Positions 6,124-50,019 of a stretch of 53,558 nucleotides of DNA are shown here, piece by piece (positions within the stretch are counted from its first letter, which is position 1; each line of letters begins with the position of its first letter). The position numbers and the translations under genes were made by a program. The stretch is taken from assembly GCA_001776505.1 (NCBI GenBank), contig MFBV01000032.1:1-53558 (forward strand). The letters run 5' to 3'. The notes below the pieces were generated by a model, which saw only the letters and a list, made by a program, of their open reading frames with translations, was not told the DNA's origin and did not search any database. The DNA is from Candidatus Curtissbacteria bacterium RIFCSPLOWO2_02_FULL_40_11. Its GTDB lineage: Bacteria > Patescibacteriota > Microgenomatia > Curtissbacterales > GWA2-41-24.

Positions 6124-6825
6124 ATGGACCCAACTGCCCCAAACGATAACGACCAGGACCAACAAGGAAACGAAAATCAGCAACACAACCCTGTTCAACC
6201 AGGTGGATTCGTAGTTTCTGGAGAACCAGGGGGGGCAAACCCTAATCAAGCACCGTCTAACCTTCAGGTACCGCAACCAACAGCGCAAGAACCTAAACCG
6301 CCAGCAGGGAATAACGATCTACAATCAGATTTGCAGTCAACCGTAGCCGCAGCTACAGGGACAAATCTGGCAGGAAAGCCCGATGCTGATGTTCCACCCG
6401 AACCCGTAGCACCTTTACCATCTACCGAACAGCAACCAGATCCCACTCCGTTTACACCCCCGCCACCTCCACCGTCAGGAGCTGCACCTACTTCAGGTCC
6501 TAGTCCGGTAGGTACTCAACCATCAGGAGATCAGTCAGGAGGAGAATCAAATTCGGGGAAAATGAAATCCCTTATTATTGTAGTTGCAGTGTTTATACTG
6601 GTAGCAATACTCGCTGCAGTAGCTTGGTATTTTATCCTCAATAGAGGACAAACTGTAGAAAATAATGTAACTGGCGATACTTCTCCTTTAGAGCTTCCAT
6701 CTTCACCTTCTCCTAGAACCGAAGGGGGATTTGGTAATTTACCAGAGGGAACACCCGAAGCAACATCACCCGCTGATATCGAAGGGGATTCAGAAGAAGT
6801 TTCACCCCAAGTACCTATAGAATAG
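6124..6825 (+). CDS. proline-rich low-complexity membrane protein
   Basis: P/Q/G-rich N-terminal half, single TM (LIIVVAVFILVAILAAVAWYFIL), acidic C-terminus; locally GC-richer. Confidence 0.6.
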   Translation: MDPTAPNDNDQDQQGNENQQHNPVQPGGFVVSGEPGGANPNQAPSNLQVPQPTAQEPKPPAGNNDLQSDLQSTVAAATGTNLAGKPDADVPPEPVAPLPSTEQQPDPTPFTPPPPPPSGAAPTSGPSPVGTQPSGDQSGGESNSGKMKSLIIVVAVFILVAILAAVAWYFILNRGQTVENNVTGDTSPLELPSSPSPRTEGGFGNLPEGTPEATSPADIEGDSEEVSPQVPIE

Positions 6826-9061: not shown

Positions 9062-9793
9062 ATGTCACTGGAAATTTATTCCAAGGATCCCCCCATTAGT
9101 TACAACTCTGAAATAAAAAGCAGAGATAGATACTTTTTTGCTCTGATTTCGATTATTGGCTTAGGAGCAGTTTTATTCGCAACTTGGCCTTTTTTCGTTT
9201 GGCAAATGAGTACTCTTCCAAGGCTTTCTGGCGGGTTCGATGATGCTCCTATTCCCCAAGCAAGAGTGCTTTCCGCAAAAAGCCCCAATTTAGAAAATAT
9301 TCAAGTAGTTCAAGATGCCGATGGGTTCTCTTATTTTATCCCCACAAATTTATCAGAGAATGATCCGAATGATGAGAACCGTTCTAAAGAATTTTCAGTT
9401 TCTATTCCTAAACTCAATATTAATAATGCTATTGCAAAAGTTGATAGTCTCGATTTTCGCAAAAACCTATCTCATTTTCCAGGAACAGCTCTCCCCGGAG
9501 AAGTCGGCAACTCTTTCATTACCGGCCATTCGGTACTGCCCCAATTTAGCGATCCGGAAAACTACAATGCAATTTTCACCAAGCTCTCCGATTTAGAAAT
9601 TGGTGACAAGGTTAATGTGGCAAGAGACGGAAAACAATATCAGTACATAGTCCAATACTCAAAAGTCGTAAACCCAAAAGATCTTTCGGTGTTAGCACCG
9701 ATTAGCGAAAATGCCAAAAACCTGACTCTTATGACCTGCGTACCACCCGGCACAAATATCAAGCGATTGGTTGTCATCACGAGTTTAATATAA
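9062..9793 (+). CDS. sortase family transpeptidase (ATG 9062 preferred over the track start 9002)
   Basis: N-terminal TM, catalytic His context FITGHSVL, TLxTC motif LTLMTCVPPG, downstream conserved Arg (KRLVV). Confidence 0.85.
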   Translation: MSLEIYSKDPPISYNSEIKSRDRYFFALISIIGLGAVLFATWPFFVWQMSTLPRLSGGFDDAPIPQARVLSAKSPNLENIQVVQDADGFSYFIPTNLSENDPNDENRSKEFSVSIPKLNINNAIAKVDSLDFRKNLSHFPGTALPGEVGNSFITGHSVLPQFSDPENYNAIFTKLSDLEIGDKVNVARDGKQYQYIVQYSKVVNPKDLSVLAPISENAKNLTLMTCVPPGTNIKRLVVITSLI

Positions 9794-10186: not shown

Positions 10187-10575
10187 TGGCGCAGATTATA
10201 ATCGATACGAATATTTTACTAAGATATATCCTGCGTGACATAGAAGGTCAATATTTGATATCCAAAAAGTTTTTTACCCAAGCAAAGTTAAAAAACATCC
10301 AATTAATAGTACCGCAAATAGTCATCTTCGAAATAGTTTTCAATTTGAATAAATTTTACGATTTCGACAAGGAGCAAATAATTAAAACGATCGAAGATCT
10401 ACTCTCTACCAACTATTTGAACGTAGAGGATTGGGAGATTTTCAATATGGCCGTTGGTATTTATGAAAATAATTCTATAGACTTTGTAGATTGTTTCATC
10501 ATCGCAAAGGCGCAAATTTCTGGAGCAAAAATTTTTAGCTTCGATAAGGATTTCAAAAAACTTACAAAAACCTAA
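10186..10575 (+). CDS. vapC: PIN-domain toxin (VapC-like ribonuclease)
   Basis: IIIDTNILLRY (Asp 1), FEIVF (Glu), DFVDCFIIA, FSFDKDFKKL, all typical PIN acidic positions. Confidence 0.85.
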   Translation: MAQIIIDTNILLRYILRDIEGQYLISKKFFTQAKLKNIQLIVPQIVIFEIVFNLNKFYDFDKEQIIKTIEDLLSTNYLNVEDWEIFNMAVGIYENNSIDFVDCFIIAKAQISGAKIFSFDKDFKKLTKT

Positions 10576-10644
10576 CTCTCATGACCTGCGTCCCCCCCCG
10601 GAACCAATATCAAGCGGTTAGTTGTAATAACTAGCTTAATATGG
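10565..10644 (+). pseudogene. ghost copy of the sortase 3' end (last 25 codons), frameshifted in a C8 tract and with the stop lost
   Basis: Aligns to 9715-9793; after removing one C it encodes KNLTLMTCVPPGTNIKRLVVITSLI, identical to the live C-terminus; 12 synonymous and 0 nonsynonymous differences. Confidence 0.9.
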
Positions 10645-10688
10645 GTTACGGTTTCCATGTGCATAATCATGTCCGAAAATCGCCCAAT

Positions 10689-10716
10689 TTGCATTTTCAC
10701 TAAATCATAGTAGAAT
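10689..10716 (+). promoter_or_regulatory. promoter TTGCAT-N16-TAGAAT upstream of trpC
   Basis: -35 at 10689-10694 and -10 at 10711-10716, 14 nt before the ATG. Confidence 0.5.
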
Positions 10717-10730
10717 GACATTCGCACTTT

Positions 10731-11507
10731 ATGACCCACGAAGTACCTCAAGGTAACGAAAGTCCCAGACGTGTTCTCGAAGAAATTCTTGCTAACAAGA
10801 GAAAAGAGATTGCTCTAAGGTATCCGGAAAAACCTAGCAGTTTTATAGAAATGTTTAGAGATGCCGATTGGCCCGTCGTAATTGCAGAGATAAAACCAAA
10901 ATCTCCTTCAGCAGGTAAACTAATTGATGAAAACCCCGTCAATTTAGTACAAAAATTTCAGCAAGGAGGAGCAGGAGCTATTTCAGTTCTTACGGATAAA
11001 AAATATTTTGGAGGTAGTCCTGAATTATTTTTGCAAATTCGCGAAGCGACAAAATTACCGATGCTTTGGAAAGATTTTGTCATTAGCGCAGATCAGCTAG
11101 TAGATGCCCAACAAAGGGGAGCCGACGCAGTGCTTTTAATAGTTACAGCCTTAAGGAGACAAAATGTAGATTTGAAAGCAATGATTAACTTTTCAAAAGC
11201 TCTTGGTCTTACACCTGTGGTGGAAGTCCATGACAATCGGGAAAGAGCTGAAGCTCTTATGGCTGGAGCAAATATCATTGGTGTAAATTCGCGCAATTTA
11301 GATACTTTGCAAGAGAATCCTTTTCTGGCTTTAGAAGTTTTGAGCCAGATACCGAGTGGTCGAATAGCGTTACTTTTTTCCAGCATTAAATCAAGGGAAG
11401 ATGTTGAGAAAGCAAGACAAGCTGGAGCAAAAGGTGTTTTGGTAGGGACGTCAATTTTAAAAGCTCCTGACCCAGTTGAAAAGTTAAGAGAGCTGACTTC
11501 AAGTTGA
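10731..11507 (+). CDS. trpC: indole-3-glycerol phosphate synthase
   Basis: VIAEIKPKSPSAG, ISVLTDKKYFGGS, GVNSRNL motifs; TIM-barrel size (258 aa). Confidence 0.88.
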   Translation: MTHEVPQGNESPRRVLEEILANKRKEIALRYPEKPSSFIEMFRDADWPVVIAEIKPKSPSAGKLIDENPVNLVQKFQQGGAGAISVLTDKKYFGGSPELFLQIREATKLPMLWKDFVISADQLVDAQQRGADAVLLIVTALRRQNVDLKAMINFSKALGLTPVVEVHDNRERAEALMAGANIIGVNSRNLDTLQENPFLALEVLSQIPSGRIALLFSSIKSREDVEKARQAGAKGVLVGTSILKAPDPVEKLRELTSS

Positions 11508-11555
11508 CAAAAAGTTAATCCTCATCAACAATACCTTGATGATTCTTGGCATTGA
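11504..11555 (+). repeat. ghost copy of the ruvX promoter plus first 6 codons (direct repeat of 12526-12577)
   Basis: 48 of 52 nt identical; first 30 nt, including TTGACA, are identical; encodes MILGID then diverges to a stop (11539-11589). Confidence 0.9.
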
Positions 11556-11563
11556 CTCTAAGT

Positions 11564-12490
11564 TTATAAACCCCTATATGTTGTTCTGAAGTTCTTTAGT
11601 GCAACAAGTAGATATTGTTGATCAGAAGCAAACCATTTTTTCATAGTAGCTACTGCGTTTCTAATGTCTTCAAATTGATTACCATTTTCCTTAGCACTAC
11701 TCCAGTCTACGAGGCTAACCTTATTTGTTTTAGGGTCAATTAATAAATGCCTTCTGTCAAATCTATCAAGGTATGCCAGATCTAAGAAATGGGTTTTTCG
11801 AAGTGCCACACCAAAAGCAGCTCCAACAATATCTGGGTGTTCAATTGCTAATTCTTCAGCAGCTATACCACCTATAAATTTCTCTACAATCCAATTATTA
11901 TTACTTTCAATAACTTCTGGTCCAACAATTCCGGCAACTTTTTTAGCAATACTTTCTTCTCCATCATGTAATGTTCTCTTAATTACGACGCCAGATTCTT
12001 CGTCAATAATAACTGCAACTAAACCTCTTTCATCGCCATAATCCAACAAAGTCATCGGCGGCTTTTCTTCTTTTGCTTTTAATCTCTTGGCAAGTTCAGG
12101 AACACTCTCAATTATGTTATGAGCAGAATTCCATAAGTGAATGTTAAAAGCCAAAGTTACACTTGGCACAACGTATTCCCAAAGAGGTTTTAAATCAAAT
12201 TCAATCCTCAACTTTTCTGCTAACGGTGGAAACCAGCGAAGAATTTCTATAGAAGGCTCTGTAAGTGATAATACCAAGGGATAGTGCTGGTGATATTCTT
12301 GTCTATCCATCGCAAATAAAGCCACCTTTGTTTGATAAAAAACATTTTTTAAAGTTACAGGTTGTCCTGTTTCTTTGCATTTATTTACCGCATCTTGGAA
12401 TAAATCCAGCAAAAATTCCGGATCTTCATCTAATACTTCAGGATTTTCATTATATATATCTGCATATGTAAGTTGTTCACCAGTAGCCAT
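11564..12490 (-). CDS. orphan protein, C-terminal half possibly an atypical kinase-like fold
   Basis: 308-aa ORF on the opposite strand between the two ruvX repeat copies; VVIKRT (VAIK-like), HFLDLAYLDRFDRRHLLID and SLVDWSSA loosely resemble Kdo/RIO/APH-type catalytic and metal-binding loops. Confidence 0.5.
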   Translation of the reverse strand: MATGEQLTYADIYNENPEVLDEDPEFLLDLFQDAVNKCKETGQPVTLKNVFYQTKVALFAMDRQEYHQHYPLVLSLTEPSIEILRWFPPLAEKLRIEFDLKPLWEYVVPSVTLAFNIHLWNSAHNIIESVPELAKRLKAKEEKPPMTLLDYGDERGLVAVIIDEESGVVIKRTLHDGEESIAKKVAGIVGPEVIESNNNWIVEKFIGGIAAEELAIEHPDIVGAAFGVALRKTHFLDLAYLDRFDRRHLLIDPKTNKVSLVDWSSAKENGNQFEDIRNAVATMKKWFASDQQYLLVALKNFRTTYRGL

Positions 12491-12525
12491 TTTTTATCGC
12501 TAATTATACTTATAATTATTTAAAT

Positions 12526-12577
12526 TTGACAAAAAGTTAATCCTCATCAACAATATCCTCATGATTCTTGGAATTGA
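12526..12577 (+). repeat. live copy of the ruvX promoter/5' end repeat
   Basis: TTGACA at 12526-12531; ATG of ruvX at 12561. Confidence 0.9.
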
Positions 12578-12944
12578 TTTAGGTCAAAAAACAACAGGCC
12601 TTGCAATATCCGAAGGCGAACTAGCAACTTCTCACTCAACTATTACTCACAAATCTTTAACAGAAGCAGTTTCAAAAGTAATTTTGTTTTGTGATCAAAA
12701 CCAGGTGGATACAGTGATAATTGGCTACGTTGAGGGTAAAAATAAAATCTATTTTGAAAAGTTTCGTGAGATGTTAGAAAATAAAAACTCTAATCTAAAA
12801 ACTGTAATGTGGGACGAAACCCTAACAACTAGACAAGCAATATCTATAATGGTTAAACTCGGTGTGCCAAGACAGAAGCGACGCGAAAAAGAACACGAAG
12901 TGGCAGCCAGTTTAATTTTACAAAGTTATTTAGACAGTAAATGA
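12561..12944 (+). CDS. ruvX: YqgF/RuvX putative pre-16S rRNA nuclease / Holliday junction resolvase-like protein
   Basis: MILGIDLGQKTTGLAIS N-terminus, DETLTT motif, about 127 aa. Confidence 0.85.
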   Translation: MILGIDLGQKTTGLAISEGELATSHSTITHKSLTEAVSKVILFCDQNQVDTVIIGYVEGKNKIYFEKFREMLENKNSNLKTVMWDETLTTRQAISIMVKLGVPRQKRREKEHEVAASLILQSYLDSK

Positions 12945-13144
12945 TTAAGAAAATTTTCGCACCGGTGCAAGCATGGATTTTACTTCAAGGGAAGTGTGTA
13001 GGTTGTGGGAAAAGTTTAACTTTAGCCATAAAGAATGATCGAAGAGACAACAGACAACAAGTTATATGTTCTTGCGGCAGAATTTTTATATTCGACAAAA
13101 GAAACGGGAGATACCGCAGAGCACTCCAAAAAGAGATAATCTAA
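12941..13144 (+). CDS. small zinc-ribbon protein
   Basis: CVGCG ... CSCG cysteine pairs; ATGA overlap with ruvX and TAATG overlap with mltG suggest translational coupling. Confidence 0.5.
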   Translation: MIKKIFAPVQAWILLQGKCVGCGKSLTLAIKNDRRDNRQQVICSCGRIFIFDKRNGRYRRALQKEII

Positions 13145-14148
13145 TGTTAGCAAACAAAAAAAGATTAGTTATTTTTGCAATTCTTTTTGTTTTACTAATA
13201 GTTACTCCAGTTATTACCAATATTTATTATAAATTTTTACTAAAACCAGCTGTGCCAAATTCCAAAGATGAAAAAATTTTTGTAATTGCACCCAGAACAC
13301 CTGTTATTGAAATCGCCCAAGATTTAAAGCAAGACAATTTAATTAAGAACCCTCTCGCCTTTAGGTTTTTAGTCTCACGTATGGGGATTGGTAAAAATAT
13401 CCAGGCAGGAGATTTTCGTCTTTCTCCATCAATGTCATCCCGTGAAATTGCCGACGAGTTGACTCATGGTGTAATTGATGTTTGGATTACTTTCCCAGAA
13501 GGTTTGAGAATTGAAGAGCAAGCAGCAAGCATTGAAAAAGCTCTAAATTTTGAATCTAATGATCTTTATCAGTTTAATGTAGTTGATTACATTGAGCTTG
13601 CAGAAGAAGGTTACATGTTCCCGGACACATATTTAATTCCCAAAGATGCAACAGCAAGCGATATTGTAGCTCTCCTGCGAAATACTTTTGACGAAAAAGT
13701 AGATGCGGAAGTATTTGCAAGCGGCCGCAAAAACGGTTTAACAGAAAATCAATTAATCACTCTAGCCTCGCTTATCGAAAGAGAAGCAAACACAAGCGAT
13801 GAAAAACCAACAATTGCGGGAATTTTAATGAACAGATTAAACTCCGGTACAGCTTTGCAAGTTGACGCAACCGTCCAATACGCTAAAGGTTTTGATGAAT
13901 CAAATAAGACTTGGTGGCCGCAAATAACCCAACTTGACTATCAACAAGTTCGCTCAAATTACAACACGTATCGCACGGCCGGTTTACCACCAGGCCCAAT
14001 TGCTAGCCCTGGTTTTGATTCGATTCAAGCGGCAGCAAATCCCCAAGACACGGAGTTCTTTTATTATCTCCACGACTCTGAAGGGAACATCCATTATGCA
14101 AAAACAATTCAAGAACACAATCTAAACGTCCAGAAATATATTCTTTAG
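13144..14148 (+). CDS. mltG: endolytic murein transglycosylase MltG/YceG (ATG 13144, not the track start 13066)
   Basis: N-terminal TM, LASLIEREA, YNTYRTAGLPPGPIASPG motifs. Confidence 0.88.
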   Translation: MLANKKRLVIFAILFVLLIVTPVITNIYYKFLLKPAVPNSKDEKIFVIAPRTPVIEIAQDLKQDNLIKNPLAFRFLVSRMGIGKNIQAGDFRLSPSMSSREIADELTHGVIDVWITFPEGLRIEEQAASIEKALNFESNDLYQFNVVDYIELAEEGYMFPDTYLIPKDATASDIVALLRNTFDEKVDAEVFASGRKNGLTENQLITLASLIEREANTSDEKPTIAGILMNRLNSGTALQVDATVQYAKGFDESNKTWWPQITQLDYQQVRSNYNTYRTAGLPPGPIASPGFDSIQAAANPQDTEFFYYLHDSEGNIHYAKTIQEHNLNVQKYIL

Positions 14149-29399: not shown

Positions 29400-30314
29400 A
29401 TGATTAAAACGATCTTAGGTACTAAATCAAATATGTCGTCAGTATACAACCAGTTCGGTCATCAGGTACCGGTAACTACCGTTATGGCCGAACCAAATAT
29501 TGTATTCGGTATACGAGATAAAAAAATTATACTTGGGTTAGGTAAAAAGAAAATATCTAAGAAAACAGAAAACACCTATCTAAAAATAGCAGGATTCCCA
29601 CCAAGATTTATTAAAGAAGTAACACTAAAAAACGAAACATCAAAAGAACAAAAAACCTCAGAAATTCCTCAAGAAAATTCCCAACAAAACCAAGAAGTTG
29701 CCAAAAAAATTAATTTAGGAGACAAAATAACAGTCTCCATTTTTGAACCTGGCGACGAAGTAAAGGTGACGGGAACTACCAAAGGTAAGGGTTTTACTGG
29801 AGTCGTCAAAAGGTGGGGTTTTGCTGGAGGTCCAAAAACTCACGGCCAATCCGACCGCCATAGAGCGCCTGGATCTATTGGAATGGGAACCACGCCGGGG
29901 CGTGTTTTTAAGGGAAAGAAAATGGCAGGGCATCTGGGTAACTCTAAACTTACTGTTACTGGTCTTGAGGTAATTGAAGTTAACGAAGATAAAAATATTA
30001 TTTTAATTAAGGGTGCAATTCCAGGCCCAAAGGATGGTTTTTTAATAATTGAAAAAACTGGAAAAGTAAAAAGTTATACTCTTCCACCACCGAGCGAAGA
30101 AAAACAGACAGCCGCCGAAGGCCTGCTACACCCGCTTCGACACGTCGCCGAAGGCGAACCTCGCCAATGGCGGGTCGAAGACGAGGCGAGCGGCGAGGCG
30201 AGCGAACCTCGACCCGAAAGTTGGGAAAAAGAAGCGAAAGCTGATGAGAAAGAAGAAACAAAAGGGACAAAAGAGTTGAAGGAAAAGGAGGAAAATGAAG
30301 ATGCCAAGAGTTAA
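29400..30314 (+). CDS. rplC: 50S ribosomal protein L3 with internal insertion and about 85-aa C-terminal extension (ATG 29400; alternative TTG 29379 after AAGGAG)
   Basis: MIKTILGTKSNMS, GTTKGKGFTGVVKRWGFAGGPKTHGQSDRHRAPGSIG. Confidence 0.95.
   Translation: MIKTILGTKSNMSSVYNQFGHQVPVTTVMAEPNIVFGIRDKKIILGLGKKKISKKTENTYLKIAGFPPRFIKEVTLKNETSKEQKTSEIPQENSQQNQEVAKKINLGDKITVSIFEPGDEVKVTGTTKGKGFTGVVKRWGFAGGPKTHGQSDRHRAPGSIGMGTTPGRVFKGKKMAGHLGNSKLTVTGLEVIEVNEDKNIILIKGAIPGPKDGFLIIEKTGKVKSYTLPPPSEEKQTAAEGLLHPLRHVAEGEPRQWRVEDEASGEASEPRPESWEKEAKADEKEETKGTKELKEKEENEDAKS
30100..30225 (+). repeat. GC-rich hairpin-dense segment embedded in frame in the rplC 3' extension
   Basis: Locally GC-rich (gccgccgaaggcc...cgaacctcgacccg); contains the CGCC-GAA-GGCG / CGCC-AAT-GGCG module also seen at 3321-3351, and a CGGGTCGA...TCGACCCG stem. 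Confidence 0.8.
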
Positions 30315-49841: not shown

Positions 49842-49846
49842 TTTTA

Positions 49847-49912
49847 TATTCGCTCGCAGAACACCCCGCCAAAAATTGAATATTTAGGCGGGGATGAATG
49901 CGAAAGCGAATA
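49847..49912 (+). other. 66-nt composite hairpin directly after hup
   Basis: TATTCGCT/AGCGAATA outer stem, CGCA/TGCG, inner CCCCGCC/GGCGGGG. Confidence 0.6.
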
Positions 49913-49966
49913 CATACTTGCGAGGACTAAGGTATCTGCTCGCTCATGTAAACTTGAAGGAGAATA

Positions 49967-49987
49967 CCGAGGACTCTTAGTCCTCGG
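49967..49987. terminator. perfect 9-bp palindrome, bidirectional terminator candidate between hup and the convergent ORF
   Basis: CCGAGGACT-ctt-AGTCCTCGG flanked by A/T-rich sequence. Confidence 0.6.
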
Positions 49988-50019
49988 AAGTTTATAATAT
50001 AATATTATAAGGAAGCAAA

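Follow-up and report, generated by a model that had tools for sequence, protein, structure and literature searches.

Insertion of SXT/R391 elements at the 5′ end of prfC supplies the target gene with a new promoter and new N-terminal codons, and cis-mobilizable elements (CIMEs) are att-flanked remnants without an integrase. The Escherichia coli K-12 element e14 is flanked by icd on one side and by the icdC ghost on the other, with a pattern of synonymous differences between the two (PMC13626634), and its excision recombines these two copies, as that paper states where it cites Hill et al. 1989 (PMC13626634). The minimal mobile element (MME) of Neisseria is defined as a slot flanked by conserved genes that houses different whole-gene cassettes from strain to strain and exchanges them by homologous recombination (PMC3082526). 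Here we analyse a locus with partial likeness to these systems in a 53,558-nt stretch of DNA, referred to in its entirety as the window, from Candidatus Curtissbacteria bacterium RIFCSPLOWO2_02_FULL_40_11 (contig MFBV01000032.1, assembly GCA_001776505.1). The segment at approximately 11556-12519 is probably a one-gene mobile accessory cassette lodged at the 5′ end of the core gene ruvX and carrying a gene for a minimal RIO/Bud32-like kinase, with transfer between co-occurring species of the genus either ongoing or recent. The features on which this reading depends are the following (window coordinates):

11498..11555, plus strand: repeat copy 1, a ghost of the ruvX promoter with its ATG and first six codons
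11564..12490, minus strand: 308-aa gene of a rare and apparently new protein-kinase-like family, the probable cassette cargo
12520..12577, plus strand: repeat copy 2, the live ruvX promoter with ATG and first six codons
12561..12944, plus strand: ruvX, a core gene with the probable insertion site at its 5′ end (Pfam RuvX, E = 2.9e-24)

The two repeat copies are 58 nt long, lie 1022 bp apart from start to start and agree at 52 of 58 positions (90%). In a BLAST comparison their 52-nt core (11504-11555 and 12526-12577) is identical at 48/52 positions (92.3%), and a 30-nt core, TTGACAAAAAGTTAATCCTCATCAACAATA, is free of mismatches; the latter occurs exactly twice in the genome (938,315 bp in 45 contigs) and was not encountered in any of 100 shuffles of the window. 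Each copy consists of TTGACA-N17-AACAAT-N6-ATG followed by ATT CTT GG(C/A) ATT GA(C/T), so that both of the two codons that changed between the ghost and the live gene (GGC/GGA and GAC/GAT) did so synonymously. The ghost reading frame meets a stop after 16 codons; the live copy runs on into the 127-aa RuvX. A repeat search of the window detected no inverted repeats at the ends of the cassette. The duplicated 52-nt segment, its spacing, the 48/52 identity and the synonymous nature of its coding changes had all been described in the first-pass annotation and were reproduced here. The strain-assembly artefact considered there is excluded, since nine independent assemblies from NCBI, ENA and JGI hold the same 1301-bp region, including both copies, with 0-1 mismatch, and a second species carries the layout in six further assemblies.

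The distribution of the cargo gene is patchy: it was found in 2/34 genomes of the order, and neither of the congeners, G030 and G031, has it. Both congeners have a single ruvX start, with a NUDIX gene overlapping the ATG in G030 and a MazEF pair following the sortase gene in G031. The insert is thus bounded by direct repeats and the empty sites hold a single copy, as is characteristic of integrative elements and CIMEs. The two cassette-bearing lineages compared here are W, the species of the window, and R, the related species of locus L005 (L005-L010, six assemblies). The layout in R is identical, namely ghost, gene, live promoter and ruvX; to the left of its ghost are isochorismatase-like, ANT/GNAT, AAA_18 and PIN/MazE genes, not trpC as in W. 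An alignment of W with R reaches an identity of about 0.9 solely between ~11580 and ~12570, the stretch that the repeats delimit, drops to 0.65-0.78 across ruvX and yceG, and shows no homology to the left of the ghost. Synonymous divergence (dS) follows the same boundaries: it is 0.31 for the cargo gene versus 1.26 for ruvX, 1.91 for yceG, 1.79 for the sortase gene, 2.7 for PIN and 1.9 for MazE, and is saturated for a 67-aa flanking gene. The flanks of R diverge from those of G030, which is devoid of the cassette, by a dS of only ~0.35.

Within the cargo gene itself dS is mosaic, with values of 0.12 for codons 1-60, 0.98 for codons 61-100, 0.57 for codons 101-160 and ~0.2 for codons 161-308. 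The low values at both ends of the gene indicate that the parts beside the repeats are those most recently shared. The ghost, too, dates to a recent recombination rather than to the split between W and R, because its 4/52 differences match the cassette ends and lie far below the divergence of the flanks. Earlier, the gene had been regarded as captured between duplicated promoter/5′ ends; its position between ghost and live copy is as described, but a mobile insert fits better than a captured gene, because the block was exchanged far more recently than the flanks diverged. Both W and R types were assembled from JGI 3300025323 and from ERZ28563641, which makes an exchange between them ecologically plausible. 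Scans of metagenome and genome contig collections retrieved no further loci.

As in e14, a live gene end stands on one side of the insert and its ghost on the other, and the differences between the two are mainly synonymous. The insert differs from e14 and SXT in being only ~964 bp long and in carrying a single cargo gene but neither an integrase nor an excisionase nor phage genes, and in that several such mini-cassettes occupy various core-gene ends without a common core sequence. The interval between the sortase gene and ruvX is MME-like, since it holds trpC in W, ANT/GNAT, AAA_18 and isochorismatase-like genes in R, MazEF in G031 and NUDIX in G030; however, MMEs are by definition without target duplications, whereas here each cassette is accompanied by a ghost of the target gene end. 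CIME status requires a cognate integrase and an att core, neither of which has been identified at the ruvX site. Two other kinds of element were considered and rejected. An integron cassette is at odds with the direct copies of a promoter and start, with fold energies no better than those of shuffled sequences, and with the lack of an adjacent integrase; an insertion sequence or a miniature inverted-repeat transposable element is at odds with the lack of terminal inverted repeats, with a duplication of 58 bp rather than 2-14 bp, and with a sole ORF that is kinase-like.

We infer that a unit of ~1 kb (one repeat plus 964 bp) would have crossed over with the promoter and start of the resident ruvX, inside a site of ~58 bp that comprises the ruvX promoter and six codons. 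Because the insertion would have recombined inside the site, one copy of it would come to lie on each side: the resident copy would be left as a ghost by the old upstream neighbour, and the copy brought by the element would be placed before ruvX. Either a site-specific integrase supplied in trans or RecA, acting on 30-60 bp of identity, could mediate the transfer; in the latter case the repeats would serve as portable homology arms. A crossover between the two repeats would cleanly delete the cassette.

The same genome contains further cassettes of this kind; a whole-genome self-comparison brought out the first three below as local direct repeats of 39-64 nt, and the fourth lies in the window itself:

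C14 28902-28965 / 29597-29660: 5′ end of pilD (prepilin peptidase), 21 codons with 3 changed, all synonymous; RHH plus ParE-like pair
C38 5542-5588 / 6472-6518: 5′ end of ychF, 47 nt identical and then a diverged continuation; Gp49/HigB plus HTH pair
C32 68416-68454 / 69107-69144: 3′ end of an AIRS-like gene, 39 nt; DUF5674 pair
10565..10644 of the window, plus strand: sortase 3′-end ghost, with the live copy at 9715-9793 and an AbrB/PIN cassette between

Synonymous-only differences (2/2 in ruvX, 3/3 in pilD) are expected if each of the two copies was coding in a different genome before they were joined. The sortase ghost is only one gene away from the ruvX ghost. A 44-nt repeat on C9 (11134/12518) was rejected as a further case, as it lies inside the atp operon and does not bound an insertion cassette. 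In the congener G031, a gene for a large serine recombinase (Resolvase, Recombinase and Zn ribbon domains) ends on the ychF start, and therefore at least one such core-gene end has been used by an integrase-bearing element in the genus; this favours site-specific events at some sites at least. The recombinase gene lies at L027 (G031:C130) 303-1853 on the minus strand and ychF starts at 370, so that the two overlap at the very ychF end where the window's genome has its ghost-bounded, HigBA-like cassette. Genes for four tyrosine recombinases, a single serine recombinase and RecA are present in the genome of the window, all of them away from the ruvX locus.

The 308-aa protein had been described from the first reading as the product of an opposite-strand ORF without a clear family. 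Its position is as given, and no match was found in Pfam, NCBIfam, PADLOC or PHROGs; used as a single query against PDB sequences, the protein likewise retrieved nothing significant. The zero matches in PADLOC and PHROGs also led us to reject a defence or phage origin of the cargo. The gene is not strictly an orphan, however. Homologues exist at 89, 72, 61 and 50% identity, and an exhaustive HMMER search of 1.84 billion representative proteins yielded 21 relatives only, 6 of them below E = 1e-10. Reading frames are intact in all homologues and pairwise dN/dS ratios range from 0.10 to 0.23, so that this is a genuine gene, one of a small, rare and conserved family under purifying selection. Blocks invariant in the close clade comprise LLDYGDERGLVA, V-x-K171 and E178-E179, as well as T-H-x-L-x-x-A-Y-L-D-R-F-D-R-x-H and L-x-D262-W-S-S-A; across 25 family members conservation is 90% or higher at R155, K171, E178, H234, Y240, H248 and D262.

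The alternative that the ORF is decaying or non-functional, or that the locus is an assembly artefact, could appeal to the want of any match in the four libraries. Against it stand the intact frames and dN/dS values of homologues that extend to 50% identity, a confident AlphaFold2 model, the invariant motifs, the constancy of the locus in nine assemblies and the repetition of the layout in the six assemblies of the second species. Both alternatives are refuted, and we accord them a negligible probability.

The neighbourhoods of the 61%, 50% and 46% homologues and of the distant, archaeal-context ones have nothing in common, and no flanking repeats were found around the 50%, 61% and 46% homologues. 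A distant member, P0020 (L023 5001-5852), lies among archaeal-type genes (Spt5-NGN, L11, FtsZ, TrmB), and the 50% homologue (L001 6001-6936) follows TsaE-Sua5-TsaB-epimerase. These contexts hint at an archaeal link and possibly at a link to the tRNA modification t6A (threonylcarbamoyladenosine); the proximity to TsaE-Sua5-TsaB may be a coincidence.

Two domains can be delimited in the cargo protein:

11567..12070, minus strand: predicted minimal kinase domain, codons ~141-308 (AlphaFold2, profile and Foldseek)
12071..12490, minus strand: predicted all-helical N-terminal domain, codons 1-140

AlphaFold2 modelled the 308-aa protein with a predicted local distance difference test (pLDDT) score of 93.3 and a predicted template modelling (pTM) score of 0.85. 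In the model, strands 145-148, 158-162, 167-172, 193-196 and 200-204 and helices alphaC (178-185) and alphaE (219-235) follow one another in the order of a canonical kinase, and the fold is bilobal, with an N-lobe sheet, alphaC, a hinge, and a C-lobe containing alphaE and the catalytic and metal-binding loops, as in the protein-kinase-like superfamily. The landmarks of the kinase domain are an ERG loop (154-156), K171, E178/E179, the hinge residue E203, the catalytic loop Y240-L-D242-R-F-D-R-R-H248 and the DFG-equivalent D262-W-S-S-A. A Foldseek search of PDB gave 399 matches with E ≤ 0.001, and all of the 50 best are kinases or kinase-like domains; the best template modelling (TM) scores normalised to the target were 0.51 for Rio2 and 0.51 for Bud32/PRPK. 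RIO-like and other kinases were also retrieved from a library of viral structures, where a phage 'RIO-like' kinase was second-best. When a profile of the family was compared with PDB, Bud32 chains came first (8k20_B with E = 1.1e-5; 8unk_B, 2vwb_A, 3en9_A), followed by many kinases.

The profile alignment places Y-x-D-x4-H of the family on H-G-D-x4-N, and D-W on D-F-G. K171, E178 and D262 align with their Bud32 equivalents, that is, with the Lys, the alphaC Glu and the metal-binding Asp of the protein-kinase-like superfamily. The position of the catalytic-loop Asn is occupied by His248, which is at least 90% conserved, and Y240-x-D242 is kept in the close clade. The first-pass annotation had picked out the strings VVIKRT, LDRFDRRHLLID and LVDWSS in this order and had noted that the usual Asn is missing; profile and fold show that the first holds the beta3 Lys, K171, that the second is the catalytic loop, Y240-x-D242...H248, with His248 in the place of the Asn, and that the third contains D262 of the DFG-equivalent. 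The structure prediction and Foldseek comparison that it had proposed as a check gave the kinase-like answer described above. Of the Kdo/RIO/APH-type fold that it had suggested, the RIO part holds, in the form of a RIO/Bud32-like fold; no match to a Kdo or APH model was obtained with the window protein. Taken together, these comparisons support the assignment of the C-terminal half to a minimal protein-kinase-like domain of the RIO/Bud32 type, as modelled. Because the Lys, Glu, Asp and His are conserved, ATP-Mg binding with hydrolysis or phosphate transfer is likely, and the domain probably binds ATP-Mg and most likely acts as an ATPase or phosphotransferase on a partner.

With Bud32/PRPK, the best profile match (E = 1.1e-5 over ~65-90 residues; target-normalised TM 0.51 for 8k20_B and 6wqx_D), the cargo protein shares a very small kinase domain without an activation segment and the order of beta3 Lys, alphaC Glu, hinge Glu, catalytic loop and metal-binding Asp. 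In contrast, the Bud32 loop H-G-D-L-T-x-S-N corresponds to Y-L-D-R-F-D-R-R-H in the cargo and D-F-G to D-W-S, the cargo has an extra helical N-domain of 140 aa, and its host is bacterial, with no Kae1/Cgi121/Pcc1 context. Membership of Bud32/PRPK was rejected, as there is no NCBIfam or Pfam match, no HGDLTxSN loop and, at the loci examined, no nearby KEOPS gene. Rio2 of Archaeoglobus fulgidus (1zar/1zao/1tqi) gave the top TM scores in PDB (0.44-0.45 normalised to the query, 0.49-0.51 to the target), and both proteins combine a minimal kinase core with an extra N-terminal domain. The cargo nevertheless differs from RIO kinases in having YGDERG instead of the STGKEA loop and YLDRFDRRH instead of H-x-D-L-S-E-Y-N, and from Rio2 in that its N-domain is all-helical and without a significant fold match. 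Folded alone, this N-domain reached a pLDDT of 72 and found no Foldseek match (best E = 2.5, with no Rio2 among the matches), and its profile retrieved nothing below E = 0.05 from PDB sequences. Pfam RIO1 (PF01163) gave no match at E ≤ 1, and the window protein is unmatched by the Kdo/WaaP, APH and choline kinase models (PF06293/PF01636/PF01633); two to three distant family members have sub-threshold Kdo/APH/choline-kinase matches (E 0.002-0.006). Judged on sequence, the protein appears to represent a small, new family of the protein-kinase-like superfamily that falls outside RIO, Bud32, Kdo and APH.

Three promoters are predicted from the sequence around the cassette:

11504..11532, plus strand: ghost promoter TTGACA-N17-AACAAT, directed into the kinase-like gene from its 3′ side
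12526..12554, plus strand: live ruvX promoter TTGACA-N17-AACAAT, 6 nt before the ATG
12503..12532, minus strand: own promoter of the kinase-like gene, TTGTCA-N18-TATAAT (11/12 match)

The -35 box of the kinase-like gene overlaps that of the live ruvX promoter back to back, and therefore the cassette is wired into ruvX expression. The same overlapping layout is present in the 89% and 72% relatives; in the latter (L017), too, the gene is divergent from ruvX. The ruvX promoter is kept as T(T/G)GACA-N17-AACAAT-N6-ATG in four lineages (the window, L005, L017 and L016), and ruvX of G031 shows the same architecture. Its -10 hexamer AACAAT, with A in first position, is unusual, and the gap of only 6 nt between promoter and ATG would imply a leaderless or nearly leaderless ruvX mRNA. 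Both lineages gained short inverted repeats around the ghost -10. A role of copy 1 as a terminator or hairpin was rejected, since its fold energies are no better than those of shuffles (minus-strand z -0.33 to +0.33) and the terminator scan placed no terminator there. The sole terminator-like site in 10500-13200 is at 12357-12380 on the plus strand, antisense inside the kinase-like gene; one such site versus 2.3 in shuffles is not significant.

Several observations weigh against a mobile cassette with an active kinase as cargo. The catalytic Asp D242 is replaced by Asn or Thr in several distant members, and a His in place of the usual Asn is uncommon. There is no recombinase in or beside the ruvX cassette, and no core common to the repeats of the different cassettes is visible by eye, which argues against a single site-specific enzyme and favours homology. 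The middle third of the cargo gene, with a dS of 0.6-1.0, fits allelic recombination between two cassette-bearing lineages equally well. In the 72% relative the dS of the cargo gene (1.49) is concordant with that of ruvX (1.0), and the 40 nt available contain no ghost. The ruvX start may thus be a long-standing home of the cassette, with an adjacency that is partly vertical. Taken further, these data could mean that the gene is an old resident, an ancestral neighbour of ruvX lost in most relatives, that the repeat is the scar of an in-situ duplication or of gene conversion, and that the low divergence between W and R reflects ordinary interspecies allelic homologous recombination without any insertion of a cassette. 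Adjacency to ruvX with a shared divergent promoter in three lineages, including the concordant 72% relative, agrees with this, as do the mosaic dS inside the gene and the co-variation of spacer bases in both copies, which suggests conversion. Nevertheless, a resident gene would hardly be confined to 2/34 genomes of the order and missing from both congeners, the ghost with its 4/52 differences is far younger than a split with flank dS > 1.2, and the block of high identity stops at the repeats. A one-off local duplication, moreover, cannot explain why other cassettes share the ghost-bounded layout and the synonymous-only differences. We therefore regard a resident gene as improbable and a mobile cassette as the probable origin of the locus.

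A different question, which does not compete with the cassette model, is whether the ghost promoter is the functional point of the arrangement. Along the lines of the antisense RNA suggested in the first-pass annotation, it could be kept for antisense transcription across the kinase-like gene, which would be silenced or tuned by convergent transcription, with read-through then reaching ruvX as from a second upstream promoter. The ghost -35, spacer and -10 are indeed the same as those of the live promoter over 29/29 nt, and in R the ghost has lost the ATG and ~22 nt, yet retains both hexamers intact with an 18-nt spacer; in each genome a spacer dinucleotide is common to both copies (GT in W, TC in R). 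Two lineages are, however, too few to show selection on the ghost promoter: by our own estimate, the chance of keeping 12/12 hexamer bases at ~0.1-0.2 changes per site is ~0.1. Furthermore, the AT-rich tract upstream of the live copy is not found in the ghost, and the short ghost ORF is not conserved. Selection for such a function is accordingly doubtful.

Gene gain and loss in the tiny genomes of the candidate phyla radiation are poorly understood, and the ruvX locus of this tiny-genome groundwater bacterium provides a clean and datable example: a probable one-gene insert that is bounded by a ghost of the target gene, has passed between two co-occurring species and is tied to the promoter of a core gene of essential type, with sister cases in the same genome that make the insertion mechanism testable. 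The cargo would add a very rare, confidently folded branch to the RIO/Bud32-like minimal kinases, with an unusual catalytic loop and an unassignable N-domain, and is of relevance to kinase evolution and to possible gene flow from archaea to bacteria. Current ideas are not overturned, as both ghost-leaving integration and divergent atypical kinases were already known; what is new is a very rare kinase-like family and a small variant of ghost-leaving integration at gene ends, the significance of which lies chiefly in the recurring, datable mini-cassettes. It is conceivable, and we put this forward only tentatively, that reduced genomes of the Curtissbacteria type harbour an entire class of integrase-less mini-cassettes of one or two genes (toxin-antitoxin pairs, orphan genes, the kinase-like gene) bounded by ghost and live core-gene termini. 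These termini would act as homology arms for transformation and RecA-dependent insertion, for precise loss and for interspecies exchange, the element copy would supply promoter and start, and the present cargo would found the bacterial branch of a His-for-Asn kinase family shared with archaea.

The left side of the cassette is occupied by a gene that varies between lineages:

10731..11507, plus strand: solitary trpC (indole-3-glycerol phosphate synthase, E = 5.9e-57), the variable left neighbour

This gene is flanked by two ghosts, that of the sortase 3′ end and that of the ruvX 5′ end, and the TGA with which it stops falls within the -35 hexamer of the ghost promoter. Elsewhere, the window carries at 49842-50012 one copy of a dispersed repeat family of ~160 nt, which is also present on about ten other contigs (e.g. 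C8:10482-10639, C15:6381-6541 and C43:1772-1932) in copies that are 75-99% identical.

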